DNA from: Clostridiales bacterium
GTDB taxonomy: Bacteria; Bacillota; Clostridia; Christensenellales; Pumilibacteraceae
Direction: 5' to 3'
NCBI GenBank assembly: GCA_022511445.1
Contig: JAFLVE010000012.1
Span: 26,514-90,513, forward strand
Length of the DNA stretch: 64,000 bases
Shown here: one piece after another, positions 41,248 to 56,668 of the stretch
Numbering within the stretch: the stretch's first letter is position 1
How the letters are laid out: each line of letters opens with the position of its first letter
Made by a program: the position numbers and the translations under genes
The notes under the pieces: model-generated
Told to the model about the DNA's origin: nothing
What the model saw: the letters and a program-made list of their open reading frames with translations, nothing else
Database searches by the model: none

Positions 41248-41256
41248 AGCCTTCTC

Positions 41257-42006
41257 CTATTCGGTAACTATAGCTACGATTGCGGTGTAGTTGTCGTTGT
41301 ACTTGGTAATGCGCTCGAGGAGCCGCGCCTCCAAACGTGCGAGCACTTCCTCGGGATTGTCGGAGGAAGCGAGGTCCTCTTCCATCTCCTCCTCGTACAC
41401 GTACTCCCAAAATCCGTCGGTGCAGATTATAAACGCGTCGCCCGCACAGAGCGGGGAGTTATACACGTCGCAGTCGGGCGGAATGTAGTAGTCGGAGCCG
41501 AGCACGCGGGTCAGCTTGTTCTGGTCCTTGTGCGTGCGGATATCGCGGAGCGAAACTTGCCCCATTTCCACCGCAATCTGCGCCAAGGAATGGTCCTTGG
41601 TCTGATAGTGCAGTTTTTTGTTCTTAAAAAAGTAAATGCGCGTGTCGCCTATGTGCGACATCACCGTCGAGTTGAAATCGGTAACAACGCAAGCCACCGT
41701 AGTGCACGACGACTTAATCTTGGGATTTTTCTCCTTTTCGTCGGTTACGCAGTTATGCGCGGTCTGAATGTAGCTTTGGACAAACTCCGGCTTGACGGCG
41801 CGCGCGGGATCGAGCTCCTTTATCTGCTTGTAGTTTTCCACAACCTTGTTGGCGCACGTCTTGCTGGCGACCTCGCTCCCGTAGTACGAGCCGAGTCCGT
41901 CGCACACGACAAGGCACGCCCCGTCGTCCGATACCGTCATGTCGAGATAGTCCTGGTTGTACTCCCGACCGCCTTGCTTGCACAGTGAACTTGTAACGAT
42001 TTTCAT
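41257..42006 (-). CDS. PP2C-family Ser/Thr phosphatase
   Basis: REYNQDY...LVVCDGLGS and the DGFWE motif. It lies 9 nt upstream of the kinase gene. Confidence 0.9.
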   Translation of the reverse strand: MKIVTSSLCKQGGREYNQDYLDMTVSDDGACLVVCDGLGSYYGSEVASKTCANKVVENYKQIKELDPARAVKPEFVQSYIQTAHNCVTDEKEKNPKIKSSCTTVACVVTDFNSTVMSHIGDTRIYFFKNKKLHYQTKDHSLAQIAVEMGQVSLRDIRTHKDQNKLTRVLGSDYYIPPDCDVYNSPLCAGDAFIICTDGFWEYVYEEEMEEDLASSDNPEEVLARLEARLLERITKYNDNYTAIVAIVTE

Positions 42007-42192
42007 ACTAACTCCGCACCGTATATGGCATAAAACTCCATATTACGCTTTTATACATTCAGTATATAATATAAGTTGCGGATAGTCAAGAGTTTTGAAA
42101 AAATAGACTTGTCGAATACCTGCTGCGGAGATATTGACAGCAAGGTGATATCGGGATATAATGTATTCGGATATTATAATTTCGGTGGAAAC

Positions 42193-42966
42193 ATGTTAAA
42201 CAGTTTTTCGAGAACGGAGCTTCTTTTGGGTAAGGATGGATTACAGCGGCTTAAACGCGCGCGCGTCGCCGTGTTCGGAATAGGCGGCGTGGGCGGTTAT
42301 GCGGTGGAAGCGCTCGCGCGCTCGGGCGTGGGCGCAATCGACATTATCGACGACGACAAGGTGTGCCTTACCAACATCAACCGCCAAATAATAGCAACCC
42401 GCAAGACGGTTGGAAAGTTCAAGGTGGACGTCGCCGCCGAAAGAATAGCCGAAATCAATCCCGAATGCGTTGTGACTAAGCATAAAACGTTTTATATGCC
42501 CGATACCGCCGACAGCTTTGACTTTACGCTATTCGACTACGTTATCGACGCGATAGATACCGTGACGGGGAAGATAGAGCTTGTCGTACAGGCGGCAAGG
42601 TCGAACACGCCTATTATAAGCTGTATGGGTGCGGGCAATAAGCTCGACCCGACTGAATTCGAGGTGGCGGATATTTACAAAACGTCGGTGTGTCCGCTGG
42701 CGCGCGTCATGCGGCGCGAGCTAAAAAAGCGGGGGATAGAAAGGCTTAAGGTCGTTTACTCCAAGGAAGAGCCGGTCCGCCCCGACGACGGAGCCGAAAT
42801 AAGCTGCAAAAATAACTGTATCTGTCCGCCCGGAACCGCGAGAAAATGCACGGAGCGGCGGGATATTCCGGGCAGCGTCGCGTTCGTCCCCGCCGTCGCC
42901 GGGCTTATAATCGCGGGAGAAGTGATTAAAGACCTTTGCGCCGGAGCGCCTTCGGCGAGTGAATAG
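42193..42966 (+). CDS. tcdA: tRNA threonylcarbamoyladenosine dehydratase (ThiF/E1-like)
   Basis: FSRTELLLGKDGLQRLKRARVAVFGIGGVGG...IDDDKVCLTNINRQ is typical of TcdA/CsdL. The ATG at 42193 is chosen over the longer ORF. Confidence 0.85.
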   Translation: MLNSFSRTELLLGKDGLQRLKRARVAVFGIGGVGGYAVEALARSGVGAIDIIDDDKVCLTNINRQIIATRKTVGKFKVDVAAERIAEINPECVVTKHKTFYMPDTADSFDFTLFDYVIDAIDTVTGKIELVVQAARSNTPIISCMGAGNKLDPTEFEVADIYKTSVCPLARVMRRELKKRGIERLKVVYSKEEPVRPDDGAEISCKNNCICPPGTARKCTERRDIPGSVAFVPAVAGLIIAGEVIKDLCAGAPSASE

Positions 42967-43315: not shown

Positions 43316-45385
43316 ATGAAAATACTTACTATCGAGCTTGAAGACAGATGGATTTTTGCTCACCGCGACGATGAGGAATTACCCATTGCCGTACTAAAGG
43401 CGGAGCTTGCCAAGGTTAAAGGCGTTTCCGTAACGTCGAGCTCTCTTACCGCCGTTACGCTCGAATACGACGAGAAAAGCTCCGACTGCGCCGACATCAA
43501 GGGTTTTGTCACCCGTCTTTTCAACGAAAAGTACCCGGGCGATCCGGTAGAGGAAATAGCGTCCTTCGAGCTCTCCGACGCGGAGGCGCCGACCAAGGAA
43601 AAGGACGAAGCCGAAAAAGAGGTGGGTGCCGCGGAAAGCGAAAGCGAGCCGCCCGCTCCCGTCCAATCGCCTTCCGAAGGCGTGCAGGCTGCTCTCGAGA
43701 AGGCGGAAAAAGAGCGCAAGTACAGATGCGCCGCCGCGCTTGAAAAGATAAACGGGCTTGTGGGCGCCGCGGAGTTTAAGGCGCTTGCAAAGGAAGTCGC
43801 GGAGGTCGCGGACGAGATTAAGCGCACGCAGACCGCCGACGTGTTTATGAACAGGTGCTATTTGTTTTCGATAGGCGACGGCGACGGACTTTCCACCTAT
43901 CTAGATTTATTCGGAAAGCTTATTTACGCTCACGATATTTGCAAAATGGCGTCCCGTCCTGTAAACGAGGTTGCGCTCGGGCCGTATCCGTACAGACCCG
44001 AAAATCAGGGACCCGATCCGTTCTCGGCGGCGCGCACGCTCGTAGAGGGCGGCGTATCCTCAAGCGTCAGAATAATCTGCGTAGATATTTGCGAGTGGAT
44101 GAATCACACCGACGACCGCTATTTTAAGCAGTTTTTACGCGTCGTCGAAAAGAACTACCACACGCATATTGTCGTTTTCAGAGTGCCGTTTGTGGACAAG
44201 GACGTGCTTGCCAAGATAAAATATTCGCTTTCCGACCTTCTTTCCATAAAGACGGTTTCCTTCCCGCCGCTCAGTCGGGACGAGCTGAAGGTTTGCGCGG
44301 AGGCTGAGCTTAAGCGCTATAACTTTACAGTTGCTAACGCGGCGTGGAAATACTTTTTTACCCGCATAGCCGAGGAAAAGAGCGACGGCAAGTTCTACGG
44401 CATGAACACCGTAAAAAAAGTGGTGCGCGAGCTCGTTTACCAAAAACACGTTTCCAACGCGCACAAGACCGTAAAGAGCAGTCAGATTACCGCCGGCGAC
44501 GCGAAAGCCTTATGCTACAACGCGGACGGCGACAGCCTTTCCGGAATGGAAATGCTTAATAAGCTTGTCGGCGTGGAAAGCATTAAAAAGCGCGTCGAGG
44601 AGATTATCGCTCAAATCGAGCTTGCGGTTAAGGAGGATCCCAAGGACCGCCCCTGCATACATATGCGCTTTGTCGGTAACCCCGGCACGGGCAAAACGAC
44701 TATTGCGCGCGTTATCGGCAAGATACTTAAGGAAAAGGGAATTTTGCGTATCGGCGCGTTCTTCGAATACGCCGGCCGCGATTTTTGCGGAAGGTACGTG
44801 GGCGAAACGGCGCCCAAAACCTCGAGCATCTGCCGCGACGCGTACGGCTCGGTGCTGTTTATAGACGAGGCGTATTCGCTGTACAGGAGCGACAGAGATT
44901 CCGTCGACTACGGCAGGGAGGCGCTCGACACGCTGATTGCCGAAATGGAAAATCACCGCACCGACCTTGTCGTAATAATGGCGGGGTATACGCAGGATAT
45001 GAACAAGCTTATGGAGGGCAACGCGGGCTTGGCGAGCAGAATGCCGTACACTATCGAGTTCCCCAATTTTACAAGGGAACAGCTTTACGACATTTTCGTT
45101 TCCATGGCGAGCGAAAAGTTCAAATGCGACGGCGACGTGCTCGATTCCGCCAGAAAGTTCTTCGACGGACTGCCCGACGCGCTGATAAGCGCAAAGGAAT
45201 TTTCCAACGCGAGGTTTGTACGCAACCTGTTCGAGCGCACCTGGGCAAAGGCGGCAATGCGCTGCCAGCTTGCAGGCAAAAAGAATATCTCCTTGATTAG
45301 GGAGGACTTCGAGCAGGCGAGCGCGGACAAGGAGTTCGCAGGCAATAATATTCCGAAAAAAACCAGAATAGGTTTTAATATTTAA
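43316..45385 (+). CDS. SpoVK/CbbX-family AAA ATPase with N-terminal domain, acidic linker and a degenerate first AAA-like module
   Basis: Functional cassette: FVGNPGTGKTT, VLFIDEAYSL, VVIMAGY. The upstream module lacks a P-loop. Confidence 0.85.
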   Translation: MKILTIELEDRWIFAHRDDEELPIAVLKAELAKVKGVSVTSSSLTAVTLEYDEKSSDCADIKGFVTRLFNEKYPGDPVEEIASFELSDAEAPTKEKDEAEKEVGAAESESEPPAPVQSPSEGVQAALEKAEKERKYRCAAALEKINGLVGAAEFKALAKEVAEVADEIKRTQTADVFMNRCYLFSIGDGDGLSTYLDLFGKLIYAHDICKMASRPVNEVALGPYPYRPENQGPDPFSAARTLVEGGVSSSVRIICVDICEWMNHTDDRYFKQFLRVVEKNYHTHIVVFRVPFVDKDVLAKIKYSLSDLLSIKTVSFPPLSRDELKVCAEAELKRYNFTVANAAWKYFFTRIAEEKSDGKFYGMNTVKKVVRELVYQKHVSNAHKTVKSSQITAGDAKALCYNADGDSLSGMEMLNKLVGVESIKKRVEEIIAQIELAVKEDPKDRPCIHMRFVGNPGTGKTTIARVIGKILKEKGILRIGAFFEYAGRDFCGRYVGETAPKTSSICRDAYGSVLFIDEAYSLYRSDRDSVDYGREALDTLIAEMENHRTDLVVIMAGYTQDMNKLMEGNAGLASRMPYTIEFPNFTREQLYDIFVSMASEKFKCDGDVLDSARKFFDGLPDALISAKEFSNARFVRNLFERTWAKAAMRCQLAGKKNISLIREDFEQASADKEFAGNNIPKKTRIGFNI

Positions 45386-45400
45386 TTGGAGGGAGTCAAG

Positions 45401-45877
45401 ATGACAGACGAAAAAAGTTTAAAACAGGCCAAAGCGGTTTACGGCGCACTTTGCGAAATGCTGAACGACCGTGGTTGGCGCTACGACAAAGACGAAGCGG
45501 GGTTGAGCATTTCGTGCAGCGCTCAGGGCGACGATTTGCCTATCGAGCTTCACATCAGGGTGGACACGCAGCGCAATCTTGTTTCGCTTCTGTCCCCGAT
45601 GCCGTTTACCGTTGCTCCTAACCGCAGGGACGCACTCGCGCTTGCGGTAAGTCGCGCAAACAACGGCATGGTAGACGGAAGCTTCGACTACGACTACGTA
45701 AACGGCCGTATCGTGTTCAGAATGACGTCGAGCTATCTCGAGAGTCTTATCGGCAAGAACATGTTCGAGTACATGCTTATGTGTGCGTGCTACACCATAG
45801 ACGAGTACAACGACAAGTTCCTTGTTGTAGCCAAAAACGAAATGTCGTTCGCCGAAATCGCGAACTACATTAAATAA
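45401..45877 (+). CDS. YbjN-family (T3SS-chaperone-like fold) protein, paralog 1
   Basis: KQAKAVYGALCEMLNDRGWRYDKD...LVSLLSPMPFTV...DGSFDYDY..GRIVFRMTSSY. ATG at 45401 follows GGAGGGAG. Confidence 0.65.
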   Translation: MTDEKSLKQAKAVYGALCEMLNDRGWRYDKDEAGLSISCSAQGDDLPIELHIRVDTQRNLVSLLSPMPFTVAPNRRDALALAVSRANNGMVDGSFDYDYVNGRIVFRMTSSYLESLIGKNMFEYMLMCACYTIDEYNDKFLVVAKNEMSFAEIANYIK

Positions 45878-45888
45878 GGAGGTAAATC

Positions 45889-46368
45889 ATGGTAGACGAG
45901 AAGAAATTAAAAAAGGCACAGACCGTGTACGAAACCCTGTGCGCGATGTTGGACGAAAAGAAATTCCATTACGACAAGCACCCGCAGGATTTGGTTATCA
46001 CCTTCGTTATGCACGGCGACGATATCCCCATGCAGTTTATAGTTAAGGTGGACGCGCAAAGAGATCTTGTTCGCGTAGTTTCGCCTATTCCCGGCGTAGA
46101 GTTCCCGACCGATAAGCGCCTTATCGGCGCAATCGCCACGTCCACAGCCAACTACAAGCTTGCGGACGGCAGCTTCGACTACGACTACGATACCGGCAAG
46201 GTGGCGTTCAGGCTCACGTCGAGCTACCTCGACAGCATAATCTCCAAACAGCTGCTCGAGTACATGATAGGCGTTTCCGGCTACACTATCGACGAGTTTA
46301 ACGACAAGTTCCTGTTGCTTGCAACGGGCGGCATGACGATTGACGACTTTGTCAAAAAGTACAAATAA
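45889..46368 (+). CDS. YbjN-family protein, paralog 2
   Basis: Collinear with paralog 1 (KKAQTVYETLCAMLDEKKFHYDKH...DGSFDYDYDTGKVAFRLTSSY). Confidence 0.65.
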   Translation: MVDEKKLKKAQTVYETLCAMLDEKKFHYDKHPQDLVITFVMHGDDIPMQFIVKVDAQRDLVRVVSPIPGVEFPTDKRLIGAIATSTANYKLADGSFDYDYDTGKVAFRLTSSYLDSIISKQLLEYMIGVSGYTIDEFNDKFLLLATGGMTIDDFVKKYK

Positions 46369-46404
46369 TCGCCGATAATTCGATTTTAATTCCAAAACAA
46401 ACAT

Positions 46405-46439
46405 ACCCGCGGCGTAAAGCGCGCGGGTTTTGTTGTTTT
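46405..46439. terminator. bidirectional intrinsic terminator between convergent operons
   Basis: aaacaaacataCCCGCGgcgtaaagcgCGCGGGttttgttgtttt. A-rich on the 5' side and T-rich on the 3' side. Confidence 0.7.
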
Positions 46440-46487: not shown

Positions 46488-47138
46488 TTACGGTTTGAAG
46501 CTACGGAGAAGCTTACATAGGAAATCGTTTTCGGTAAAGGAAGGGTTATTAAAAATCAGCGAGTCGCGGATTTTTTTGCCCTCGCGCGTGCGGATTTTCT
46601 TGTCGGAAACTTCGTTCAGCCATTCGAGGCAGGATTCTTTCGTGTATTTTACACGCCCGTCGACGCAATATATAAAATATCTGTGTACGCCTTGTATATA
46701 ATCGATTTCCTTTGCGATTTTGGCATTGATGTTTTGCGGGTTTCCCGACTCCATGTCCTTCCACAGTTCGTCCAGTTTATCGAAAAGGGCGACATTGTCG
46801 CGACCCGATTTAGCCGCCTCCAAAAACGTGTGAACGGATTGATATTCGCGGCGCTTATCCTCGGCGCTTTTCGTGCCGCGTATTTTATCGCCGATATCTA
46901 TTTCCCCGAAGTCGTGTATCATTACCAAAAATACGGTTAAATCCTTATCGTAATCTTTATAAAGCTCGTCGGAAGCGTTCAGCTCCGTTTTATCGGGCAG
47001 GAGGCACAACAAGATAACCGCGGAGCTCAGCGAGTGCGAGGAAACCGATTCGGGGTTATCTATGCCTCGTTTTATCCAGCCCGAGCGTTTTATTTCATCT
47101 ATTTTAAGATACTTGTTCAGCGCTTCGATAATATTCAT
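46488..47138 (-). CDS. YfbR/HDDC2-type HD-domain phosphohydrolase (5'-deoxynucleotidase-like)
   Basis: KRSGW, PESVSSHS and VMIHDFGEIDIGD (HD at nt 46911-46916), plus a downstream EIDY acidic motif. The start overlaps the upstream stop codon (TAATG). Confidence 0.85.
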   Translation of the reverse strand: MNIIEALNKYLKIDEIKRSGWIKRGIDNPESVSSHSLSSAVILLCLLPDKTELNASDELYKDYDKDLTVFLVMIHDFGEIDIGDKIRGTKSAEDKRREYQSVHTFLEAAKSGRDNVALFDKLDELWKDMESGNPQNINAKIAKEIDYIQGVHRYFIYCVDGRVKYTKESCLEWLNEVSDKKIRTREGKKIRDSLIFNNPSFTENDFLCKLLRSFKP

Positions 47139-50100
47139 TACGACACATCTCCTTTATTTTTGGGTGCGTTACCGTAAATTTCGTTAAAGTATTTTACGAT
47201 ATACTTATTCCTGTCAAACCAATCGTTGTCTTTGTCGCGTTTTTTTACTTCGGCGGGGAAATTATAAATGCTTTTTAGAGTGCCGATAAAGTCCTCGTTA
47301 TTCGCCAAGCTTTTGAATTTGTACTTGCGCGTTTTCAGCAAACTGCAATACGTTACCATTTGCAGGATAAGAATAGGCTTTATCGCTTTTTGCTCTTTGG
47401 CGGAAGCGATACCTCCCGAGATATCCATCCGCAGCTTGCGGAAGGTGTTGACCCCTCTTGTCGTATCCTTGTCCTCGTACCCTTCGAAGCTGCCCGTTAG
47501 GTCGAGGCATTTGTAGGTGTCGCCGTAGTAGTCTAAGTGGAAGGCGCGGTTGACGTCGTCCGCCATCGGATTGTACGTTTTTTCGGAAGTGTAAACTATC
47601 GTCTTAATGTAATCCAAAAACTTTTTCTCGACGCCCAGCGATCCCAAGGCGATTGCTATGCATCTGCTTAAGAACAGGTTTTGTCTCGTTTCGGCGTCCG
47701 ACATGGTACGATTGGAATTGTCGCCGCTCATCGATTGGTTTAAACCGTCGTTCAAGCGTTTTTCCATTTTATTTAACAGGTTGACGGAAGCGGTCAAATA
47801 CCTTTCGCCCAAAACGCGCAGAATGTACGAGACCTGACATTCGAACTTGGGGTAGTTGTTGATTAAATCGATATTGCGGTCGCAGAACAGAATCAGGTTG
47901 TACACGTCGTTGTTGGAAAGCTCGCACGTTACGAATCTGTTAACGCTCTTGGGTAAGAACAGATTAAGCCTGCCGCCGAGGTTGCGTATAACTGTATATT
48001 CGTTTTGCGGAAGTATTGTCTCTCTTAACAGCGTGATGTAGTGGCGTGCGACAAGATAGTCGATCATGCTTCTGTGCTCTCTTGCAAGCGTCCAGTTGTT
48101 GTTGCAAAGCTCGCTGTAATTAAAATGCTGGTTTTCGTACTCGAAGGCGTAAACGCTTTTCGCCAAATCGTCGTATTGCTTTTTGTCCATTTCCGGCGTG
48201 TATTTTAATAGCCCGATGTCGTACAAGGTAAGAATGTCTTTGCTGTAATTTTTTAGGTAGTCCGTACGCTTCAAAACTTTAATCAGCCAGTATGCGTCCA
48301 GCGTGTAAAAGTTCAAACGGAAGAGTTCGGCGCGTATGGCGGTTGCCGTTTCGCGGTCCGACGGACCGCCGCACACAATAGAGCAATTTTGTATAAACTC
48401 GATACACTCTTCCGTTCTTGCGATATTCATCGGACTTATGTTGATGACGGGGGTGTCGTCCATTTCCCCGGGGGCGAGCTTTTTCAAATCGTGGAACGCC
48501 GATTTTTCCTTTTGCTCGGAGTTTAGCGTGTAAAGAATATCGCAGCCGAGGATAAGCCGATAATCTTTAACGTCGTTCTCGAGGAAGGAGCATATTTGAG
48601 TATATATATGATTTATGCCGCAGTGAAATTCCCGAACGTTGTCAATAAAGAACAAAGGTTTTTCCTTATTGCTGTCCTTGTGCAGGTCTATTATTTCCTT
48701 AATCTTTTCAAAGTCGTCGGTTATGGCGCCGATGTCGAAGTCGTTTTCGTATTTGGAAACGTCTATGTAAAACACGTTGGAGTTGATGTTGACCGACTGC
48801 AATTTAAGGCAGACGTATTGAAGCAGTCTGTTTTTGTACGAGCCGATAGGACCGTTGATTTTAAGTATAAGTCCTTTTTTGCGGTTTTTGGCTATGAGTG
48901 TTTCTATGCCTTCGTGCAAATCCTCGTCGAGCGTGTTAAGTATTCCGACAATTTTGGTTTTGATATACCGCGGAGCGTCGGGACCGCCTACGGGCGGCAC
49001 GGTTGTAATATCCTTGAATATTTTGGAAAAGTTTTTAAGATTGGCGTTTACGGCGGGGATAATGTCGCTCCATTTTATAAGATTGTATTCGAGCCCGCGT
49101 ATCGTGCTTACCCCGCATTTTTCGGCCAGAAAGCTTTTTACGTTGGAGCTGAAAAACTTGGATGAAAAGGAAAACGCGTTGGGCGGTTGCTTTTGCGCTT
49201 CGCCGGGCGTGTCGGAGGCGGAAACCATAATAAGCGGGCTTTGCGTATCGAAAATGTCGTCCGCTTTTTCGAGTAAATACAGCAGGGTGGGCTCGGCGAC
49301 GTCCGACGAGAGGAATTTTTCCTTTTCGAATTTGACGGTGATTTTACTCGGCAGGACTATATTTCCGTATTTTACCGTTCCGCCGGTTTTTTTGCCTTTG
49401 GCATTAGCGTCGCTTAGCACGACCGTGTATCTTATGTAGTTTTTGTTAATGGCGGGGCGGAGGAAGGGGTGCAACGGGATAAAAGCGGCTATGCGCGGAT
49501 GTTTGTCGATAAACTTTTTCTTTTTAATTTTTTCGATTTTTATTCCGCTGTATTCCTTGCCGACCAATTCCTTAATAAGCTTATCGTCGTCGGTTATTTT
49601 GCGGTAGTCGGGCGACTTCGGCGCGGACGCCAAAGCGTAAACAAAATCTTTCAGGAAGTCTATTACGTCCGACTGATAATATTGCTTGTCGGACACGTTT
49701 TGAAAATGGTTTATCCTGCCGAGCAGGTCCATGCAAATGGGCAGAAACTCCCAGGACGGTCTGGTCTTGTGATTTTCCTCGAAGTTTTCTATCGTGTGGA
49801 AGATAAACTGGAGCTCCCTTGCAAAGTTACCTTGCTCCTCGCTCCAAAATGTGTATCTGGGCAGGTTGTAGAAAATCGCGATCTCGTCGCCCGAGTTGAC
49901 TATGTTTTCGAGGACGGGCACGGACAGCTTGGTTATCCTGCCTATCTTGCAGCAGTACGACAGGGCGGAGCGCAGATACTTTTTGTCGTAGGGCCCCTTT
50001 TTTGTGTTTTCAAAGTAGGCGCGAAGCTCGTAAATTTTTACTTCCTCGTTAAGCTCAAGCTGTTTGACGGTTCGCCTTATTCCGTTAAGAAGCTTGGGGT

Positions 50101-50656
50101 TTGTAAAAACCTTTTTAAGCGCGTCGAATAAGCGGTCGTAAAAAGCCTTGTCCTTAACGTCGTAGCGGATTAGCTTTTGGGTGGTTATCTCGACGTTGTC
50201 GAAAACAACCTCGTCGTTGTCGTTTATTATGTTCGCCGCTTTTAACACGTTTTTTATTTGGGGATTGCCGGTTATCGCTCCGACGCCCCAGATTTTTTTA
50301 ATCGTGTTCCTTACGTCGTTAAGCTCGATGTTAAGCAGGTTGAGAAGCGACTTGTACCGCCTTAAATGCTGTAGGCGCGAAATAAATACCGAGTCGCCGA
50401 TAAAACCTGCGACAACACCTATTAACCCGCCTAAAAAGTCCGCGAGATACGTATAGTCGGGCTCTGCCTCCGTGCCTATATTGAGTATGGGAAAAAACGT
50501 GAAAACCCAAAACAGCAATCGAATCAGCCCTATAAAAAAAGCAACCGACAGCGCCAGCGTCAGTAAAGCGTACAGCCACAGCAACGCTTTGTGCTTGCGT
50601 ATACTGTAGTAACTCAGCTTGTCCGCCGATTGTTGTGATTTATCTCTTTTACGCAT
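47138..50656 (-). CDS. membrane-anchored NACHT/STAND-like giant protein with degenerate Walker A
   Basis: N-terminal TM helices (ALLWLYALLTLALSVAFFIGLIRLLFWVFTFFPIL and FLGGLIGVVAGFIGDSVFI). NTPase core: LILKINGPIGSYKN (48830-48853), PLFFIDNVREF, RLILGCD, INISPMNIARTEECIEFIQN. Helical C-terminal ~400 aa. I chose the start at M24 of the ORF because the first 23 codons contain the promoter. Confidence 0.85.
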   Translation of the reverse strand: MRKRDKSQQSADKLSYYSIRKHKALLWLYALLTLALSVAFFIGLIRLLFWVFTFFPILNIGTEAEPDYTYLADFLGGLIGVVAGFIGDSVFISRLQHLRRYKSLLNLLNIELNDVRNTIKKIWGVGAITGNPQIKNVLKAANIINDNDEVVFDNVEITTQKLIRYDVKDKAFYDRLFDALKKVFTNPKLLNGIRRTVKQLELNEEVKIYELRAYFENTKKGPYDKKYLRSALSYCCKIGRITKLSVPVLENIVNSGDEIAIFYNLPRYTFWSEEQGNFARELQFIFHTIENFEENHKTRPSWEFLPICMDLLGRINHFQNVSDKQYYQSDVIDFLKDFVYALASAPKSPDYRKITDDDKLIKELVGKEYSGIKIEKIKKKKFIDKHPRIAAFIPLHPFLRPAINKNYIRYTVVLSDANAKGKKTGGTVKYGNIVLPSKITVKFEKEKFLSSDVAEPTLLYLLEKADDIFDTQSPLIMVSASDTPGEAQKQPPNAFSFSSKFFSSNVKSFLAEKCGVSTIRGLEYNLIKWSDIIPAVNANLKNFSKIFKDITTVPPVGGPDAPRYIKTKIVGILNTLDEDLHEGIETLIAKNRKKGLILKINGPIGSYKNRLLQYVCLKLQSVNINSNVFYIDVSKYENDFDIGAITDDFEKIKEIIDLHKDSNKEKPLFFIDNVREFHCGINHIYTQICSFLENDVKDYRLILGCDILYTLNSEQKEKSAFHDLKKLAPGEMDDTPVINISPMNIARTEECIEFIQNCSIVCGGPSDRETATAIRAELFRLNFYTLDAYWLIKVLKRTDYLKNYSKDILTLYDIGLLKYTPEMDKKQYDDLAKSVYAFEYENQHFNYSELCNNNWTLAREHRSMIDYLVARHYITLLRETILPQNEYTVIRNLGGRLNLFLPKSVNRFVTCELSNNDVYNLILFCDRNIDLINNYPKFECQVSYILRVLGERYLTASVNLLNKMEKRLNDGLNQSMSGDNSNRTMSDAETRQNLFLSRCIAIALGSLGVEKKFLDYIKTIVYTSEKTYNPMADDVNRAFHLDYYGDTYKCLDLTGSFEGYEDKDTTRGVNTFRKLRMDISGGIASAKEQKAIKPILILQMVTYCSLLKTRKYKFKSLANNEDFIGTLKSIYNFPAEVKKRDKDNDWFDRNKYIVKYFNEIYGNAPKNKGDVS

Positions 50657-50684
50657 TGTTAATCCTTTGTATAACGGTATACTT

Positions 50685-50713
50685 ATTATAGCACCGATTG
50701 CGGCGCATTTCAA
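50685..50713 (-). promoter_or_regulatory. promoter of the AT-rich cassette (TTGAAA-17-TGcTATAAT)
   Basis: Read on the minus strand: -35 at 50713-50708, -10 at 50690-50685, TG at 50693-50692. An AAAGGA ribosome-binding site and the ATG at 50656 follow. Confidence 0.6.
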
Positions 50714-50835
50714 TAGAAAGTACAAAATTTTCGCGTACGGAGCGAAGGCGGTTTCGTTTTTACGGGCAGATGTCCCGAATATGGTACATTGGGCGTGATA
50801 TATTGAGGTACACTCTTAAATGGGGAGGTCTTCGC

Positions 50836-53800
50836 GTGAAAAAACCGAGCGTTACGAAAGGACAAATATCGCTCTTCGAATCGGGCAATCTGGCGCTTAA
50901 GCTTGACGGACCCGATTATTCCGTTACCGATTTGCCGCTCGATTGGGAAGATCTTTTCGCGCCCGAGGCGCAGAGCCGAGACGGGCAGGTGGACGAAATT
51001 TCGGACGCGCTCGTTATGAGCCTTACCACCTTCGGAAAGGTGGATATTGAATACATATCCAAGGTTACCGGCGAGACGTTAAAGTCGGTAATCGTGGCGC
51101 TGCGCGGCTCCATCTATCAAAACCCCGATACTTGGTGCGAGTGCTTTTATAAGGGCTGGGAGACGAGCGAGGAGTATCTTTCGGGCAATCTTATAAGGAA
51201 GCTTAACGCCGCCGAGGCCGCCAACAGAATTTACCGCGGACGGTTTAACGACAATATCGAGGCGATAAGGCGCGTTTTGCCCGACGCAGTTGCGACAAAG
51301 GACATTTACATTACGCTCGGCTCGCCCTGGGTGCCCACCGATATAATAGACGACTTTATCACGTACATGCTTAATCTAAAGCGCGTTCCTTTTATTGGCA
51401 CCACGCACGACGAGATAACCGGCTCGTGGGAGATTCCCAACAAAAGCTTTTACAAATACAGCGTGCGCTCCGAGAGCACGTACGGCACGCCGCGGCTTTC
51501 CGCGCTCTATATACTCGAGCGGACGCTTAACATGAAGACGGTTGCCGTTACCGACGAGATAGTTTCCTACACCAACACGAGCGGAAAAAAGCGGATAATA
51601 AACAAATCGGAAACGGTTTCCGCGCTCGAAAAGCAAGCCAAAATGATAAGCGACTTTCAGCGCTGGGTGTGGCGTGACGAGGAGCGGAAGGCGCGCCTCG
51701 AGGAAATTTTCGAAAACAAGTTTTCTTGCGTGCGAAGGAGAGTTTTCGACGGCTCGTTTCTGACTTTCCCCACGATGAATCCGTCGGTAAAGCTGTATCC
51801 CTACCAAACGGACGCGGTGGCGCGCATTCTGTTTACTCCCAACACACTCCTCGCTCACGACGTGGGGTCGGGCAAGACCTACGTCATGATAGCGGCGGGC
51901 ATGGAAAAGCTCCGTATGGGGCTTTCCAAAAAGAATATGTACGTCGTGCCCAACAACATTGTGGGGCAGTGGCAAAAGATATTTTACGAGATGTATCCCG
52001 GTGCAAAGCTGCTCGTCGTCGAGCCGAAGTCTTTCACGCCCGAAAAGCGCAAGAGCGTAGTGCGTTCGATTCGCGACGACAAGTACGACGGCATTATTAT
52101 TGCGTACAGCTGTTTTAAGCAAATCCCGCTGTCCAAACAGTATTACTTAAGCGCGCTAAAAAGGGAGCGCGCACAGCTCGAAGCGCAGTTAAAGCAGCAG
52201 GGCAAGGCGACGACTCGGCTTGAAAAAAAGTGCGCCGCCATTAATAAAAAGCTTAACGAGCTTGCCGCCGAGCTCGATACGGGCGGCGACGAAATATACT
52301 TTGACGAGCTGGGCGTTACGGGACTGTTTGTGGACGAAGCGCACAACTTTAAAAACGTACCGCTCGACACCAAGGTGAACAACGTTTTGGGCATAAGCGA
52401 CGGGTCGAGCCGTCAGTGTAAAGAAATGCTCGACAAGGTGCGCGTCGTTCAGCGCCAAACGGGCGGCAAGGGGGTTGTACTCGCAACGGGTACGCCCATT
52501 ACCAACTCCGTAACCGACGTGTTCGTAATGCAGCAGTACCTGCAAAGCGGCGAGCTCGGCTTACTCGATCTTCAGTCCTTCGACAGCTGGCTCGGCATGT
52601 TTGCGGAGCGCGTGACCGAATTCGAGATAGACGTGGACACCAACAGCTACCGCCTTGCGACCCGCTTTGCAAAATTCCACAACCTGCCCGAGCTTACCGC
52701 AATGCTCGCCGCCATAGCCGATTTCCACGCCGTGGACGTAACCGACGGCATACCCGAAACGGACGGCTATAACGACGCGCTTATCCAAAAAACGCCCGCG
52801 CTTGCGTCCTACCTCGAGGAGATATCGCGCCGTGCGGACGAGGTGCGCCACGGCAGTATAGACCGCAAGGAAGACAACATGCTTAAAATCACCACCGACG
52901 GCAGAAAGGCGGCGCTTGACATAAGGCTTGTAAAGGCTGCGCTCCCCACCTACCAAATGAAGGTGGTGCGGTGCGCGGAAAACGTGGCGGACATATATCA
53001 CAGGACGAGCGAGCAAAAAAGCACGCAGCTTGTTTTTTGCGACACTTCGACCCCCAAAGCGGGCTTTAACGTTTACGACGAGGTAAAGCGCTTGCTTATA
53101 AGCTTTGGCGTTCCCGAAAAGCAGATTGCGTATATTCACGACGCGGACACCGAAAAAAAGCGCGAAAAGCTGTTCGCATCGGTGAGGAAGGGTGAGATAA
53201 GAGTTTTGATCGGCTCGACTTTTAAGCTCGGGCTCGGAGTAAACGTTCAGGACAGGCTTATCGCTCTCCACCACCTCGACGTGCCCTGGCGACCTGCCGA
53301 CATGACTCAGCGCGAGGGGCGAATACTTCGTCAGGGCAACCTCAACAAAAAAGTCAAAATCTTCCGCTACATCACCGAGGGCTCCTTCGACGCGTACTCG
53401 TGGCAGCTTCTCGAGACAAAGGCGAGGTTTATAGCCGACCTGCTTTCGGGCTCGTTTACGGGCAGGAGCGGCGGCGACATAAGCGACACCGTGCTCGACT
53501 ACGCGGAGGTAAAGGCGCTTGCCGTGGGCAATCCGCTCGTCAAAAAACGGGTGGAGACCGCAAACGAGCTTACGCGTTATCTCACCCTTCAGCGCAAGCT
53601 GATAGATACGAGAATCCACCTCGAAAAGGTGCTTATGGAAATACCCGCCAAGCGCGAGCGCACCCGCGACCTTATAGAAAAGTGCAAAAGCGACGCCAAA
53701 GCCTATTATAAGTGGTTAAAAGCCAATCCCGAGCCGACGGATACCGCCGGGAAAAAGCGGGAGGCGGAGCAGAGGAAGGCGCTTCGCGAGAAAATTCACG

Positions 53801-54162
53801 AGGCGGTTTCATCCAATATTCTCGAAACGACCGAGCGGCAATTGTTGTCGTACAAGGGCTTTACCGTCGTTCTCCCCGCCAACATGACGCCGTACACCCC
53901 GTACGTGTATTTGGAGCGCGAGGGCAGATATTACGTAGAGCTGGGCGATACCGAGGTGGGCAATCTCCAAAGGATAGACAACTACCTTAACGGCTTGGAG
54001 GATCACCTCGTCAGGCTGAAAGAGGGCTTAAGTAAGCTCGACCGCGACGAGGTTGAAATTCGTGCCGAGCTTGTCAAAAAGACGAGCTACGCCGACAAGA
54101 TAGAGGCGTGCCAAAAGCGTTTGGAATCAATAGACAAAAAACTGGGAGCTAAAGAAAAATGA
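50836..54162 (+). CDS. SNF2-family helicase resembling the helicase half of mobile-element methylase-helicase proteins (no methylase motif seen)
   Basis: GTG at 50836 lies 7 nt after a GGGGAGG. Motif I LAHDVGSGKTY, motif II LFVDEAHNFKN, motif III ATGTPITNS, motif VI QREGRILRQGN. Long coiled C-terminus. Confidence 0.9.
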   Translation: MKKPSVTKGQISLFESGNLALKLDGPDYSVTDLPLDWEDLFAPEAQSRDGQVDEISDALVMSLTTFGKVDIEYISKVTGETLKSVIVALRGSIYQNPDTWCECFYKGWETSEEYLSGNLIRKLNAAEAANRIYRGRFNDNIEAIRRVLPDAVATKDIYITLGSPWVPTDIIDDFITYMLNLKRVPFIGTTHDEITGSWEIPNKSFYKYSVRSESTYGTPRLSALYILERTLNMKTVAVTDEIVSYTNTSGKKRIINKSETVSALEKQAKMISDFQRWVWRDEERKARLEEIFENKFSCVRRRVFDGSFLTFPTMNPSVKLYPYQTDAVARILFTPNTLLAHDVGSGKTYVMIAAGMEKLRMGLSKKNMYVVPNNIVGQWQKIFYEMYPGAKLLVVEPKSFTPEKRKSVVRSIRDDKYDGIIIAYSCFKQIPLSKQYYLSALKRERAQLEAQLKQQGKATTRLEKKCAAINKKLNELAAELDTGGDEIYFDELGVTGLFVDEAHNFKNVPLDTKVNNVLGISDGSSRQCKEMLDKVRVVQRQTGGKGVVLATGTPITNSVTDVFVMQQYLQSGELGLLDLQSFDSWLGMFAERVTEFEIDVDTNSYRLATRFAKFHNLPELTAMLAAIADFHAVDVTDGIPETDGYNDALIQKTPALASYLEEISRRADEVRHGSIDRKEDNMLKITTDGRKAALDIRLVKAALPTYQMKVVRCAENVADIYHRTSEQKSTQLVFCDTSTPKAGFNVYDEVKRLLISFGVPEKQIAYIHDADTEKKREKLFASVRKGEIRVLIGSTFKLGLGVNVQDRLIALHHLDVPWRPADMTQREGRILRQGNLNKKVKIFRYITEGSFDAYSWQLLETKARFIADLLSGSFTGRSGGDISDTVLDYAEVKALAVGNPLVKKRVETANELTRYLTLQRKLIDTRIHLEKVLMEIPAKRERTRDLIEKCKSDAKAYYKWLKANPEPTDTAGKKREAEQRKALREKIHEAVSSNILETTERQLLSYKGFTVVLPANMTPYTPYVYLEREGRYYVELGDTEVGNLQRIDNYLNGLEDHLVRLKEGLSKLDRDEVEIRAELVKKTSYADKIEACQKRLESIDKKLGAKEK

Positions 54163-55274
54163 ACGAAATAAAACAATCGGACATACCGTCTATGTCGGTA
54201 GGGCGAGCGGTGGAATTACTTTCGAGGTCGTACACCGCCGTTATAAAAAAGGGACTGCCTATGCGCACCTTTCCTTCCGTTATGCTTTGGGGCCCGCCGG
54301 GTATAGGTAAATCGCAGGCGGTAAGGCAGATAGCGAGGGAGATAGAGTGTATCGGGAAAAAGGCGGTTGTAACAGACGTTCGCCTGCTCCTGTTTAACCC
54401 TATCGACTTAAGGGGAATCCCCACCGCAAACGCCGACAAAACGCTTGCCGTGTGGCTGAAGCCGCAGATTTTTAAGATGGACGAGAGCGATAACATTATA
54501 AACATTCTCTTCCTCGACGAGATTTCGGCGGCGCCGCAATCGGTGCAGGCGGCGGCGTATCAGATAGCGCTCGACAGGGTGGTAGGCGAACACCGCCTCC
54601 CCGAAAACTGTATCGTTATCGCGGCGGGAAACCGCGTAACCGACAAGTCGGTAGCATTCCGCATGCCCAAAGCGCTTGCAAACAGGCTGTTGCATATAGA
54701 GATAGAAATGAGCTTCGAGTCCTGGAAGGAATGGGCGGTAGGCGCGGGGATAAACGACAAGGTATTGGGCTTTTTATCGTTCAGGCAAAACTACCTCATG
54801 TGCTTCGACCCTTCGTCCAACGACCACGCTTTTGCAACGCCGCGCTCGTGGGAGATGGTAAGCAACGTTCTTAACGGCGTGGATAGCGACGTGGACAATA
54901 TGTATTCGCTTATCGCGGGGCTTGTGGGAGTGGGCGTTGCGGTGGAGTTCCGCACCTGGGCGCAGGTGTACGACTCTCTTCCGTCCATAGAGGAAATATT
55001 CGCGGGCAAGATGCCGCCCGTGCCGAGAAACACGGCGACCCTTTACGCGCTCGTTTCGGCAATGACGGCGTATGCGCGCGACCATAGGACGGATATGAAC
55101 AAGATAGCCAACTCCATTCGTTACGCCAATTCGCTTCCGCCCGATTTTTCGGTAGTGCTGTTAAAGGACTACATGTACATAGAAAAGGGGTACAAGGAAA
55201 AGCTTATGCGTATCCCCGAGTTTAACAAGTGGCTGCAAACCAAAGGGAGCTTACTGAATGGCTCTCTCCGATGA
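54159..55274 (+). CDS. MoxR/AAA_5-type ATPase
   Basis: Walker A LWGPPGIGKSQ, Walker B ILFLDEISAAP, then IAAGN. ATGA overlap with the SNF2 gene. Confidence 0.9.
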   Translation: MNEIKQSDIPSMSVGRAVELLSRSYTAVIKKGLPMRTFPSVMLWGPPGIGKSQAVRQIAREIECIGKKAVVTDVRLLLFNPIDLRGIPTANADKTLAVWLKPQIFKMDESDNIINILFLDEISAAPQSVQAAAYQIALDRVVGEHRLPENCIVIAAGNRVTDKSVAFRMPKALANRLLHIEIEMSFESWKEWAVGAGINDKVLGFLSFRQNYLMCFDPSSNDHAFATPRSWEMVSNVLNGVDSDVDNMYSLIAGLVGVGVAVEFRTWAQVYDSLPSIEEIFAGKMPPVPRNTATLYALVSAMTAYARDHRTDMNKIANSIRYANSLPPDFSVVLLKDYMYIEKGYKEKLMRIPEFNKWLQTKGSLLNGSLR

Positions 55275-56598
55275 AAAAATACGTTCCTACGTAAAGCGGC
55301 TATTGCTCTCCCGTATGCGGATTCTGTGCGACCACGGCTTTTACGGTCTGCTTCTTATGCACATGAACTTCGCTATCGACGAAAACTGCGACACCGCGGC
55401 GACCGACGGAGTAAAAATTTACTTCGGACCCGAGTTCCTCGACGACTTGTCCGACGGCGAGCTCGATTTTGTAATGATGCACGAAATTATGCACGTAGTG
55501 CTTCAGCACTGTCTGCGCGGCGGGGAAAGAGACCGAGAGCAGTTTAACATAGCGTGCGATATCGTCGTAAACTCCAATATCCTACTTTCAAACAACAACG
55601 ATATATCGAGTATAGAGCTTAAAAAGTACGGCGTCGCAATGCACGTTGCGCCTAACGGAAAGGAAGGGCACAACTACACCGCCGAGGAGGTTTACGCAAT
55701 GCTCCCGCAAGACAGCGCGGCGCAAGCCGGCGGAAACAGCGGCAGTCGCGGTAAAACCGGCGGCGACGGCGGAAAAGGGAAAGACAGAAGCGGCAACGGC
55801 GGTAAAGGTAACGGCAAAAAAAGCGACGGCGGCACGGGAAGTAACGGCGGCGGAAAGGTAAATGGCGGCGGAGGCGAGATTGACGGCGCGCAATGGGACG
55901 ACCATTCGCGCTGGGGGAGTGTGGACGACGACGGGCTTCTTAAGGATTTATGGATTAAGAGGTTTTCGGACGCGCTCGAGTCGATGCGGGTGCGCGACCC
56001 CTCCAACGAGAGGGGGACTATTCCCGCGTTTGCGAAACGGCTTTTGGAGGAACTAGTAAAGCCGCAGACCGATTGGCGCACTATACTTAACGAGTTTGTT
56101 CAAGAGGAGATTACCGACTATTCGTTTTCTCCGCCCGACAGGAGATACGACGGACCGTTTATGCTTCCCGATTTTAACGAAAAGGAAGATACGGTCGAGG
56201 ATATTCTGTTTATGATAGACACCTCGGGGTCGATGTCGGACGGCATGATAACGGCGGCGTTCTCGGAGGTAAAGGGGGCTATCGAGCAGTTTAACGGCAG
56301 GCTTAAAGGTTGGCTCGGATTTTTCGACGCGGCTATAATCGAGCCGACTCCCTTTGAGAACGTGGAGGAGTTCGAGGTTATTAAGCCGGCGGGCGGCGGG
56401 GGTACCGACTTCGGGATAATATTCAAGTACGTGGAAAAATTTATGGAAGACTCTCTTCCCGCAAGCATAATCATTCTTACCGACGGCTACGCGCCTTTCC
56501 CGCCCGAAGTCAGTGCGCACGGCATTCCCGTGCTGTGGCTGTTAAACAACACGGACGTAACCCCGCCCTGGGGCAAAACGGCGATGATTACGGTGTAG
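55258..56598 (+). CDS. Zn-metallopeptidase-like (HExxH) plus vWA (MIDAS) protein, DUF2201-type, with G/K/N-rich linker
   Basis: VMMHEIMHVVLQH, then the linker GGNSGSRGKTGGDGGKGKDRSGNGGKGNGKK, then FMIDTSGSM (DxSxS MIDAS). 17-nt overlap with the MoxR gene. Confidence 0.85.
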   Translation: MALSDEKIRSYVKRLLLSRMRILCDHGFYGLLLMHMNFAIDENCDTAATDGVKIYFGPEFLDDLSDGELDFVMMHEIMHVVLQHCLRGGERDREQFNIACDIVVNSNILLSNNNDISSIELKKYGVAMHVAPNGKEGHNYTAEEVYAMLPQDSAAQAGGNSGSRGKTGGDGGKGKDRSGNGGKGNGKKSDGGTGSNGGGKVNGGGGEIDGAQWDDHSRWGSVDDDGLLKDLWIKRFSDALESMRVRDPSNERGTIPAFAKRLLEELVKPQTDWRTILNEFVQEEITDYSFSPPDRRYDGPFMLPDFNEKEDTVEDILFMIDTSGSMSDGMITAAFSEVKGAIEQFNGRLKGWLGFFDAAIIEPTPFENVEEFEVIKPAGGGGTDFGIIFKYVEKFMEDSLPASIIILTDGYAPFPPEVSAHGIPVLWLLNNTDVTPPWGKTAMITV

Positions 56599-56603
56599 GA
56601 ATA

Positions 56604-56632
56604 TTGACTTTTCGTACCGTTTTAGGTACAAT
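56604..56632 (+). promoter_or_regulatory. sigma-A-type promoter (TTGACT-17-TACAAT) for the WYL regulator
   Basis: Begins 6 nt after the vWA stop codon and lies 37 nt before the WYL gene start. Confidence 0.55.
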
Positions 56633-56668
56633 GATAAAAAAGAAGAGAGATTTATAAAGGAGAAAATT

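Follow-up and report, generated by a model that had tools for sequence, protein, structure and literature searches.

A putative membrane-anchored STAND-type NTPase coupled to an HD_3 phosphohydrolase: a candidate NLR-like conflict system of gut Clostridia

In animals, plants and bacteria alike, innate immunity is built around NLR/STAND proteins; those described so far from bacteria detect phage proteins with repeat or binding domains at their C-termini. The present work concerns two adjacent minus-strand genes found in a 64,000-nt stretch of the genome of a Clostridiales bacterium (GenBank assembly GCA_022511445.1, contig JAFLVE010000012.1, positions 26,514 to 90,513; this whole stretch is referred to below as the window). 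Gene 1 encodes a large protein with predicted transmembrane (TM) helices, and gene 2 a small protein with an HD domain. Like the bNACHT and Avs systems, this cassette and its relatives carry a swappable effector-type domain at the N-terminus, an AAA+/STAND NTPase in the centre and a further region at the C-terminus, are encoded by one or few genes, and occur on mobile elements and in defence islands. Unlike bNACHT and Avs, the large protein of the window has no match in Pfam NACHT, nSTAND or PADLOC, and its Walker A motif reads GPIGSYKN. Further, the C-terminal end consists here of a helical domain plus an HD_3 domain with intact catalytic residues, not of a repeat or protein-binding sensor, and in the window the HD domain is a separate subunit. 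As judged from the sequences, this would be an NLR-like conflict system whose constant enzymatic end is unusual, whose P-loop is non-canonical yet conserved and whose membrane module is new.

The small protein shares the HD fold, the H...HD...D metal ligands, the RxGW motif and a length of ~200 aa with E. coli YfbR, human HDDC2, yeast YGK1, OxsA-like proteins and DatZ of phage S-2L. Those are free-standing metabolic or phage enzymes, whereas here the HD domain shares a chain with a STAND NTPase or is coupled to it in translation. Deoxynucleotide-depleting defence enzymes are known as stand-alone proteins (dGTPase/SAMHD1-like HD triphosphohydrolases and dCTP deaminase), which have neither an NLR-like regulator nor a membrane anchor. 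The dGTPase/SAMHD1-like enzymes would share the logic of the explanation favoured below, namely that an HD-superfamily enzyme removes DNA precursors, but they belong to a different HD family, and no sequence match was seen between the window HD protein and either type of defence enzyme. F-plasmid PifA and the Tmn/KAP NTPases are membrane-tied P-loop proteins of abortive infection, from which membrane damage is expected on infection. PifA gave weak matches (2e-4) in two distant relatives only and none in the window protein; KAP NTPases carry TM helices inserted within the NTPase domain, while the window protein has a separate two-TM module ahead of it. The bNACHT paper and the 2026 STAND survey do not mention an HD domain, and no STAND protein with a C-terminal HD_3 domain or with the TM module was found in these two, in the Aravind-group surveys or in an incomplete full-text literature search. 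An earlier inspection of the window from its letters alone (the sequence-only reading) had named no described system with this combination of proteins; none has emerged from Pfam, NCBIfam, PADLOC, PHROGs, PDB sequences or the literature searched.

The two genes and their signals are as follows.

46488..47138, minus strand: gene 2, 216 aa, ATG at 47138-47136
47138..50725, minus strand: gene 1 open reading frame (ORF) as called mechanically in the ORF list, TTG start, 1195 aa
47138..50656, minus strand: gene 1 as corrected, 1172 aa, ATG at 50656, stop codon at 47140-47138
50685..50713, minus strand: promoter, -35 box TTGAAA at 50713-50708, 17-nt spacer, TG-extended -10 box TGcTATAAT at 50693-50685
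50669-50664, minus strand: gene 1 ribosome-binding site AAAGGA, ahead of the ATG at 50656
about 46395..46430, minus strand: terminator-like GC-rich hairpin followed by a U-rich tract (-18.5 kcal/mol, z = -2.47)

The TTG at 50725 was ruled out as the start of gene 1. It lies upstream of the -10 box, and the true start is therefore the ATG at 50656, which in the alignment coincides with the N-termini of all gene 1 homologues. Residue numbers below refer to the resulting 1172-aa protein (D672 here corresponds to the D695 of the sequence-only reading). The extended -10 promoter proposed earlier at 50685-50713 proved to be the best sigma-70-like site in a promoter scan of the 46.2-51.0 kb region (11 of 12 matches, TG present). 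The 1-nt TAATG overlap reported for the two minus-strand genes was likewise seen in the ORF coordinates and in the sequence: the TAA at 47140-47138 and the ATG at 47138-47136 have one base in common, the sequence being GTCGTAATGAAT (TAATG). The terminator-like hairpin sits between the HD gene and a convergent YbjN-like gene. The 1-nt overlap, the single strong promoter and the terminator-like hairpin indicate that the gene pair is, as predicted from its sequence, one self-contained transcription unit, inverted with respect to its neighbours.

The gene 1 protein had no match in Pfam, NCBIfam, PHROGs, PADLOC or PDB sequences. Its AlphaFold2 model, made from a 75-sequence alignment (pLDDT 85.6, pTM 0.66), showed in order a two-TM module, an AAA+/STAND NTPase domain, in which the Walker A motif is degenerate, and a conserved helical C-terminus, as well as disordered linkers. 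The positions of these parts are listed below.

49247..50656, minus strand: N-terminal module, residues 1-470 (TM hairpin, helical bundle and small beta domain)
50378..50590, minus strand: TM helical hairpin, residues 23-93 (hydropathy segments 23-62 and 69-93)
48416..48886, minus strand: AAA+/STAND-type NTPase domain, residues 591-747 (from Foldseek and from alignment to NACHT-matching relatives)
48830..48853, minus strand: deviant Walker A motif GPIGSYKN, residues 602-609 (canonical form GxxxxGK[ST])
48626..48655, minus strand: Walker B strand LFFIDNVREF, residues 668-677, with D672 kept
47141..48415, minus strand: all-helical C-terminal domain, residues 748-1172 (from the secondary structure of the model; helices to residue 1163)
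47519..47551, minus strand: family signature NRAFHLDYYGD, residues 1036-1046 (from a translation check)

Within residues 595-740, the model showed a beta1-P-loop-helix unit, the Walker B strand and strands 4 and 5. Foldseek searches with the NTPase domain retrieved DnaA (7e-5), Cdc6/Orc1 (1e-4), SAMD9 (5.5e-4) and Apaf-1 (5.7e-4, over 594 columns), so that the AAA+/ASCE P-loop NTPase fold expected of a STAND protein is present according to both model and Foldseek. A profile built from 48 fused relatives, in which the HD domain is part of the same chain, found NLRC4 through its NACHT domain (residues 158-281, E 6e-4) and ranked it above DnaA, Cdc6 and Orc1, and eight of these 48 proteins matched Pfam NACHT (1.1e-6 to 6.5e-3). 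The most distant relatives, with the order PNP (nucleoside phosphorylase)-NTPase-helical-HD, align with the profile of the window clade from the P-loop onwards (E 1.8e-10 to 3.8e-6); those with a canonical P-loop match Pfam NACHT at 1e-5 to 6e-3, on residues aligned with the P-loop of the window protein. Six of the eight fused relatives, scanned singly against Pfam NACHT, scored 16.8-25.8 bits, all under the 26.7-bit cut-off, and the window protein itself gave no match to Pfam NACHT (PF05729) or nSTAND at E <= 1. Kinship of the window protein with NACHT is thus likely, its own sequence falling below the curated Pfam threshold for membership. The sequence-only reading had described a STAND/NLR-like protein, a proposal that it tied to a structural match; the AAA+ initiator/STAND group retrieved by Foldseek with the AlphaFold2 model, Apaf-1 included, provides that match and, together with the NLRC4 profile match and the NACHT matches of distant relatives, sustains the proposal. 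Sequence and model together point to a derived STAND-type NTPase, related to NACHT.

Four motifs had been read as a STAND/NACHT-like series, and they do occur in the order given (GPIGSYKN, LFFID, RLILGCD, INISPMNIA), but the first of them, then called a P-loop, is not canonical: Tyr replaces the Gly before the Lys, and Asn the Ser/Thr after it. Among 53 family representatives, the corresponding residues were YKN in 37, EKN in five, GK[ST] in four, YRN in three, and YKD, DKN, HKN and DGT in one each. Tyr therefore takes the place of the Walker A Gly in 41 of the 53, nearly all of which also have Asn for Ser/Thr. Distant members retain GxxGxGK[ST] together with hhhhDGxDEY, and the family forms a gradient from GK[ST] through GPxGSEKN to GPxGSYKN. 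In the Walker B strand (LFFID672-N-V-R-E676) the first Asp, D672, is kept, the NACHT-type DGxDE (e.g. VLIDGVDEY) having become DNVRE (hhhhDN/GxRx in the family). The strong conservation of the altered Walker A motif indicates a site under selection, while normal ATP hydrolysis, or ATP-driven switching, by the window NTPase appears doubtful. Degenerate Walker motifs have been reported for KpAvs8 in a STAND survey (PMC13581612).

The C-terminal part, earlier seen as a helical stretch of ~400 aa, is all-helical over residues 748-1172 in the AlphaFold2 model. No other part of the family is as well conserved (identity within the clade 0.64-0.67), it aligns to the distant relatives over profile positions 835-1024, and in the fused relatives it is the domain to which the HD domain is attached. 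The N, Y, Y and D of the family signature were invariant in the 48 fused relatives. Within the window clade, the region between the TM module and the NTPase domain (residues 346-590) is the least conserved and is rich in indels. A protein-recognition surface, if there is any, would not be placed where Avs-type sensors carry theirs.

At the N-terminal end, the two hydrophobic segments (23-62 and 69-93) agree with the TM helices noted earlier, and in the model they are covered by helices at 19-54 and 69-122. Eight Lys/Arg residues precede the first segment, the loop between the two (55-68) is acidic, and four Lys/Arg residues follow the second. This charge distribution predicts an N-in/C-in topology, in which both ends of the hairpin, and everything beyond it, would be cytoplasmic. 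The hairpin is followed in the model by a cytoplasmic helical bundle that extends up to residue ~345 and contains a conserved FYNLPRY motif, and by a beta domain at 372-444 (pLDDT of the N-terminal module, 80.8). Some 80 free-standing proteins, 200-430 aa in length, correspond to residues 1 to about 345, the longest of them reaching about 390. Pfam searches with 63 of these stand-alone homologues yielded no consistent family, and Foldseek found no match to the module in PDB (best E 0.18) or BFVD (best E 0.6). The ~480 aa that the sequence-only reading could not assign are therefore a discrete, recurrent module, although one that still matches no Pfam family and no PDB or BFVD structure.

The gene 2 protein matches Pfam HD_3 over residues 15-160 with 46.6 bits (E 4.5e-12), well above the 22.5-bit cut-off for membership; the Pfam YfbR-like family gave 20.0 bits, under its cut-off of 25.9. 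Among PDB sequences, it matched HDDC2 (4dmb, 6.5e-7) and YGK1 (7.8e-7), and the family profile matched HDDC2 at 1.5e-27, DatZ at 1e-3 and YfbR at 0.027. The residues that characterise HD_3 enzymes (H...HD...D, the catalytic Glu and the Trp of RxGW) are all in place: RSGW at 18-21, metal ligands H35, H75-D76 and D146, catalytic E79, and D84. H35, H75, D76 and E79 are invariant across 11 split homologues. The YfbR/HDDC2-type motifs that had been picked out in gene 2 thus belong to what is, by its sequence, a predicted metal-dependent phosphohydrolase of the HD_3 (YfbR/HDDC2/DatZ) type with all catalytic residues present. According to the DatZ literature, the RxGW tryptophan sets deoxyribose specificity in the HD_3/YfbR-like DatZ. 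Candidate substrates of the gene 2 protein are 2'-deoxynucleotides, either monophosphates (dNMP), triphosphates (dNTP) or both.

A word-indexed protein search returned only three relatives of the gene 1 protein (44-46% identity), and an exhaustive profile search of 1.84 billion representatives was used instead, which yielded 175. The matches divide the protein into two independent modules, residues 1-~345 and ~450-1150, the second recurring in proteins of about 830-1200 aa. Domain tallies were made on the 150 matches listed of the 175; among these 150, 59 have the core and a C-terminal HD_3 domain in one chain. When one genome per species was scanned with the signature pattern, 62 loci were found, and at 61 of them the NTPase core and the HD domain form a single ORF. 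These 62 loci, 80 metagenome loci and ~20 contigs inspected singly are the basis of the context statistics given below. The window has another arrangement, a TM-core fusion followed directly by an HD_3 gene; it was found in all five cluster representatives with this fusion, in at least five different, unrelated contexts. In L018, L050, L055 and L170 a core-HD gene is directly preceded by a separate TM gene, and TM, core and HD are three consecutive genes in L087. All four fusion/fission states of the three modules therefore occur, which is strong evidence, at the level of gene arrangement, that TM, core and HD modules act together. The nearest fused relative is P0017, and by comparison with it the split in the window falls in the linker between the helical and HD domains; the window cassette would be a rare split and rearranged member of a larger NTPase-HD family not previously described. 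The view of the two genes as a coupled unit is upheld by these fused, split and three-way-split relatives, and the genomic linkage on which that view was made to depend exists, since an HD_3 gene follows all five TM-core fusions and HD is fused to the core at 61 of the 62 genome loci. In the genome scan the family came mostly from gut Clostridia; Proteobacteria have distant cousins of the PNP type, and further distant relatives occur in cyanobacteria, Verrucomicrobia, Planctomycetes and Bacteroidota. Directly upstream of some core-HD genes that have no N-terminal domain, a ~240-aa protein with a single TM helix is encoded (L045:9266-9985, L047:8987-9718). It was not detected by the TM-module profile, and may be a second type of membrane partner.

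The N-terminal slot was classified in 122 long family members, with the following result.

PNP (nucleoside phosphorylase): 22 members
TIR-like: a 17-member cluster plus several singleton TIRs (about 17-22)
OmpR-type winged helix: 16 members (PDB 1kgs, E 1.6e-5)
uncharacterised helical domains: 7, 6 and 3 members
calcineurin-like metallophosphoesterase: 2 members
trypsin-like protease: 1 member
fused TM module: 5 members
no N-terminal domain: 29 members, several with a TM gene upstream

The TIR assignment of the 17-member cluster is weak, its best PDB profile match being TIR-1 at E 0.038; one other family member matches Pfam TIR_2 at 3.4e-8. In the members of the winged helix-turn-helix (wHTH) and helical types, HD is the sole enzymatic domain. 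PADLOC models matched the relatives only through their PNP and TIR ends (PDC-M60C, PN effector, PDC-S60). The family has the multidomain layout of STAND proteins, i.e. a variable N-terminus, an NTPase, and a constant C-terminus made up of the helical domain and HD. Such seemingly swappable effector or adaptor heads are the pattern typical of NLR-like conflict systems.

The explanation favoured here, to which a probability of roughly 0.55 is given, is that the gene pair encodes a membrane-anchored, two-subunit STAND-type/HD_3 defence unit with the HD domain as its output; the role of the family, to judge by architecture and context, is probably anti-phage or anti-plasmid defence. The HD subunit would sit on the C-terminal helical domain of the membrane protein, at the place where the two are covalently joined in relatives, and the complex would be kept inactive at rest. 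A cue associated with infection would then bring about self-association through the NTPase domain, which probably binds nucleotide and would hydrolyse it poorly or not at all. Two outputs could follow: the HD domain would cleave 2'-deoxynucleotides (dNMP and/or dNTP), starving the synthesis of invader DNA, and the clustered TM hairpins would damage the membrane, leading to abortive infection. HD was taken as the output because it is the sole enzymatic domain in many members and because its active site is strictly conserved.

Several observations weigh against this explanation. Many relatives have TIR, PNP or protease N-termini, so that by NLR logic the constant C-terminal HD would be the sensing end rather than the weapon. 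The TM module resembles no known pore-former in Foldseek searches of PDB and BFVD. The Walker A motif is degenerate and has neither the Gly nor the Ser/Thr normally required for Mg-NTP binding, and NTP-dependent switching is therefore uncertain. The NACHT assignment consists of sub-threshold and transitive matches, and the top structural matches are replication initiators, not NLRs. In PADLOC-DB v2.0.0, the large protein had no match and the HD protein matched only Cas3e, at E 0.063. No relatives were found by tblastn in phage or plasmid collections, nor in IMG/VR. Finally, the window locus has no adjacent recombinase, and its GC content at third codon positions (GC3) is nearly host-like, as in an old resident and not in fresh cargo.

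The variety of N-terminal domains raises the possibility, which is considered an unlikely one, that the roles are reversed: HD_3 and the helical domain would form the receptor for a deoxynucleotide cue, and the N-terminal two-TM module would be the sole effector, damaging the membrane. The cue might be a burst of dNMPs from the degradation of host DNA, or phage-modified or non-canonical dNTPs, which HD would bind and slowly clear. The family would then act as a bacterial NLR-like switch that monitors a small molecule instead of a phage protein, with a degenerate, possibly ligand-locked P-loop (GxxGxYKN) in place of the usual ATP-driven NTPase and with interchangeable N-terminal effectors, the new two-TM module among them, a proposal held with similarly low confidence. 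Reversed roles would agree with the fact that close relatives differ in what they carry at the N-terminus, where classical effectors are found (PNP, TIR-like, metallophosphoesterase, trypsin-like, TM), while the helical and HD end is constant and the most conserved; where the N-terminal domain is missing, a separate TM gene lies just upstream, and the conserved RxGW tryptophan gives HD_3 enzymes their specific binding of deoxynucleotides. A pure receptor, however, would have no need of such strict conservation of catalytic residues, and at least 16 members have only a DNA-binding wHTH at the N-terminus and no other catalytic domain, which leaves HD as their output if no partner acts in trans. 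In addition, we know of no precedent for an HD domain as an NLR sensor.

Two further explanations concern what the cassette belongs to. It might be a non-autonomous component of a larger system that includes the SNF2 helicase, MoxR ATPase, VWA/DUF2201 peptidase and WYL regulator genes beside it, although this is judged very improbable. Family members adjoin SNF2-MoxR-VWA homologues at 15 of the 62 genome loci; at 13 of them SNF2-MoxR-VWA homologues with 40-60% identity come directly after the core-HD gene and on its strand, some of these loci having genes that overlap or are spaced by ~40 bp, and two have other arrangements. In the window the two sets of genes are divergent. The closest relatives of its cassette (P0002, P0003, P0004 and P0016), however, lack the trio. 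Moreover, none of the 80 SNF2-anchored metagenome loci, ~35 of which have the full trio, contained a family member within 10 kb, and an obligate link to SNF2-MoxR-VWA was rejected for this reason. Ahead of SNF2 the interval differs in length from locus to locus and contains unrelated cargo, GmrSD for example, a pattern better explained by co-localisation in a cargo hotspot. A non-immune role seems improbable as well, be it as a membrane-associated regulator of deoxynucleotide turnover or as a selfish addiction (toxin-antitoxin-like) pair that stabilises mobile elements. YfbR, HDDC2 and similar HD_3 enzymes are indeed housekeeping nucleotidases, the window copy is compositionally ameliorated and has no mobility genes, and no match was found in the defence database. 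Against this, the distribution of the family is sporadic and rare, its cassettes ride on mobile elements and have a GC content below that of their flanks, and swappable TIR, PNP and protease N-termini on an NLR-like scaffold are hallmarks of conflict systems, not of metabolism.

Whichever end does the sensing, the family appears to place an HD_3 deoxynucleotide phosphohydrolase with intact catalytic residues at what is usually the sensor end. If it is defensive, it would join NLR-type switching to nucleotide-pool chemistry, either as output or as input, and would add a family of well over 100 sequence clusters, most of them from gut Clostridia, to which current defence-finding tools are blind. 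The fusion/fission series offers natural constructs with which the sensing part could be separated from the killing part.

The base composition of the cassette departs from what had been reported. A GC content of 33-35% had been given from sampled lines, but the measured value is 45.5% (gene 1, 45.7%; gene 2, 45.3%), against 52% for the whole window and 51-53% for the 10-kb flanks of the cassette; single 60-nt lines of the cassette range from 28 to 60%. At second codon positions the GC content (GC2) is 0.31 in the cassette and 0.38 in neighbouring genes, and GC3 is 0.57-0.61 and 0.67, respectively. The deficit is thus found mostly at the amino-acid-determining codon positions 1-2; the dip is real yet modest. 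With 45.5% GC and a GC3 near that of the host, the description of the cassette as an AT-rich island was rejected as worded. The homologous cassettes have 26-33% GC, below that of their own flanks, and the GC3 of the homologues L001, L009, L010 and L011 is 0.19-0.39, as against 0.57-0.61 in the window copy; the window protein and its homologues are alike in a composition rich in Lys, Ile, Asn, Tyr and Phe. This AT-rich amino-acid signature, combined with host-like third positions, suggests that the window copy is an old, ameliorated acquisition from low-GC Firmicutes. A phage or plasmid origin was considered and rejected, the phage, plasmid and IMG/VR collections being without a match. Inside gene 1, at 48596-50131 of the window, the plus strand contains three long antisense ORFs of 189, 201 and 220 aa. 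They are most likely by-products of its codon composition (AT-rich at positions 1-2, GC-rich at position 3), not genes.

Mobility and defence genes were found around the homologous cassettes. P0002 is flanked on one side by Dcm-Vsr, an AAA_15/21 ATPase, PDDEXK_4, HTH-HipA and a UvrD-like helicase; on its other side are Mob_Pre, a serine recombinase and an insertion sequence. P0004 adjoins a serine recombinase and a Rep gene, L011 a phage-type integrase, and L170 lies on an integrase/Rep_1/Mob_Pre element. These neighbourhoods are those expected if the homologous cassettes are cargo of mobile elements or defence slots.

The neighbours of the cassette in the window are an AAA(SpoVK-like)-YbjN-YbjN group on one side and, on the other, an SNF2 helicase-MoxR-VWA/DUF2201-WYL block that is divergent from it. 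The former (43316-46368, plus strand) encodes a 689-aa AAA ATPase with AAA_lid_6 (SpoVK/CbbX-like) followed by two YbjN-like paralogues (163 and 159 aa), and in L056 the SNF2 gene, too, is preceded by a YbjN homologue. The latter (50698-57652, plus strand) encodes the SNF2 helicase (~1100 aa), a MoxR AAA ATPase, a DUF2201 VWA/metallopeptidase and a WYL protein. The SNF2-MoxR-VWA block recurs with 40-65% identity in many contigs of gut Clostridia (L025-L049, L056, L090-L138), and PADLOC gave only generic helicase and WYL matches for its genes. To all appearance this is a separate conflict system, undescribed so far, that keeps a slot for variable cargo just upstream of the helicase. The interval upstream of SNF2 measures 0.4 to 5.3 kb and contains GmrSD, a pair made up of a phosphoesterase and an AAA-M41 peptidase, or unknown genes. 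In related metagenome loci, the slot between WYL and SNF2 was located as follows.

L092:1087-3747, L108:4771-8727 and L106:7529-9629: slot between WYL and SNF2, holding GmrSD or a calcineurin-like phosphoesterase with an AAA-peptidase M41

The presence of GmrSD or of the phosphoesterase/M41 pair in this slot marks the position of the cassette as a putative hotspot for defence cargo. Most simply read, the arrangement places the window cassette in a variable slot for defence cargo, with no need of the trio.

Among the TIR-like relatives, a NUDIX hydrolase gene overlaps the core-HD gene or lies directly 3' of it at four loci (L021:11008-11523, L029:12530-13036, L031:12288-12851 and L039:5968-6477). 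Since it is found at these four loci only, all of TIR-like relatives, NUDIX was rejected as a general partner and may be tied to TIR products more than to HD; where present, it may process TIR products (ADP-ribose) or supply dNMPs to the HD enzyme. Upstream of the TIR-like P0020 (L021:4047-7721), a DUF4062 protein, a nucleotidyltransferase, a radical-SAM enzyme and a thymidylate-kinase-like protein are encoded, a putative nucleotide-modifying set reminiscent of viperin-type loci. DUF4062 was reportedly described of late as a TIR-like NADase, 'Swarozyc'.

Elsewhere in the window, a Ser/Thr kinase (532 aa; best PADLOC matches mad6 and PD-T4-6) and a PP2C phosphatase are encoded at 39649-42966 on the minus strand; divergent from them is the gene of a ThiF/E1-like protein, with matches to CBASS-type E1-E2 models at 1e-18. 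The kinase, PP2C and ThiF/E1-like genes may form a further conflict-related set. At 185-4687, on the plus strand, lies the gene for a 1500-aa protein with DUF4011, AAA_11/AAA_12 (Upf1-like helicase) and a C-terminal MTES_1575 restriction-endonuclease-like domain, a composition typical of the helicase-nucleases of defence islands.

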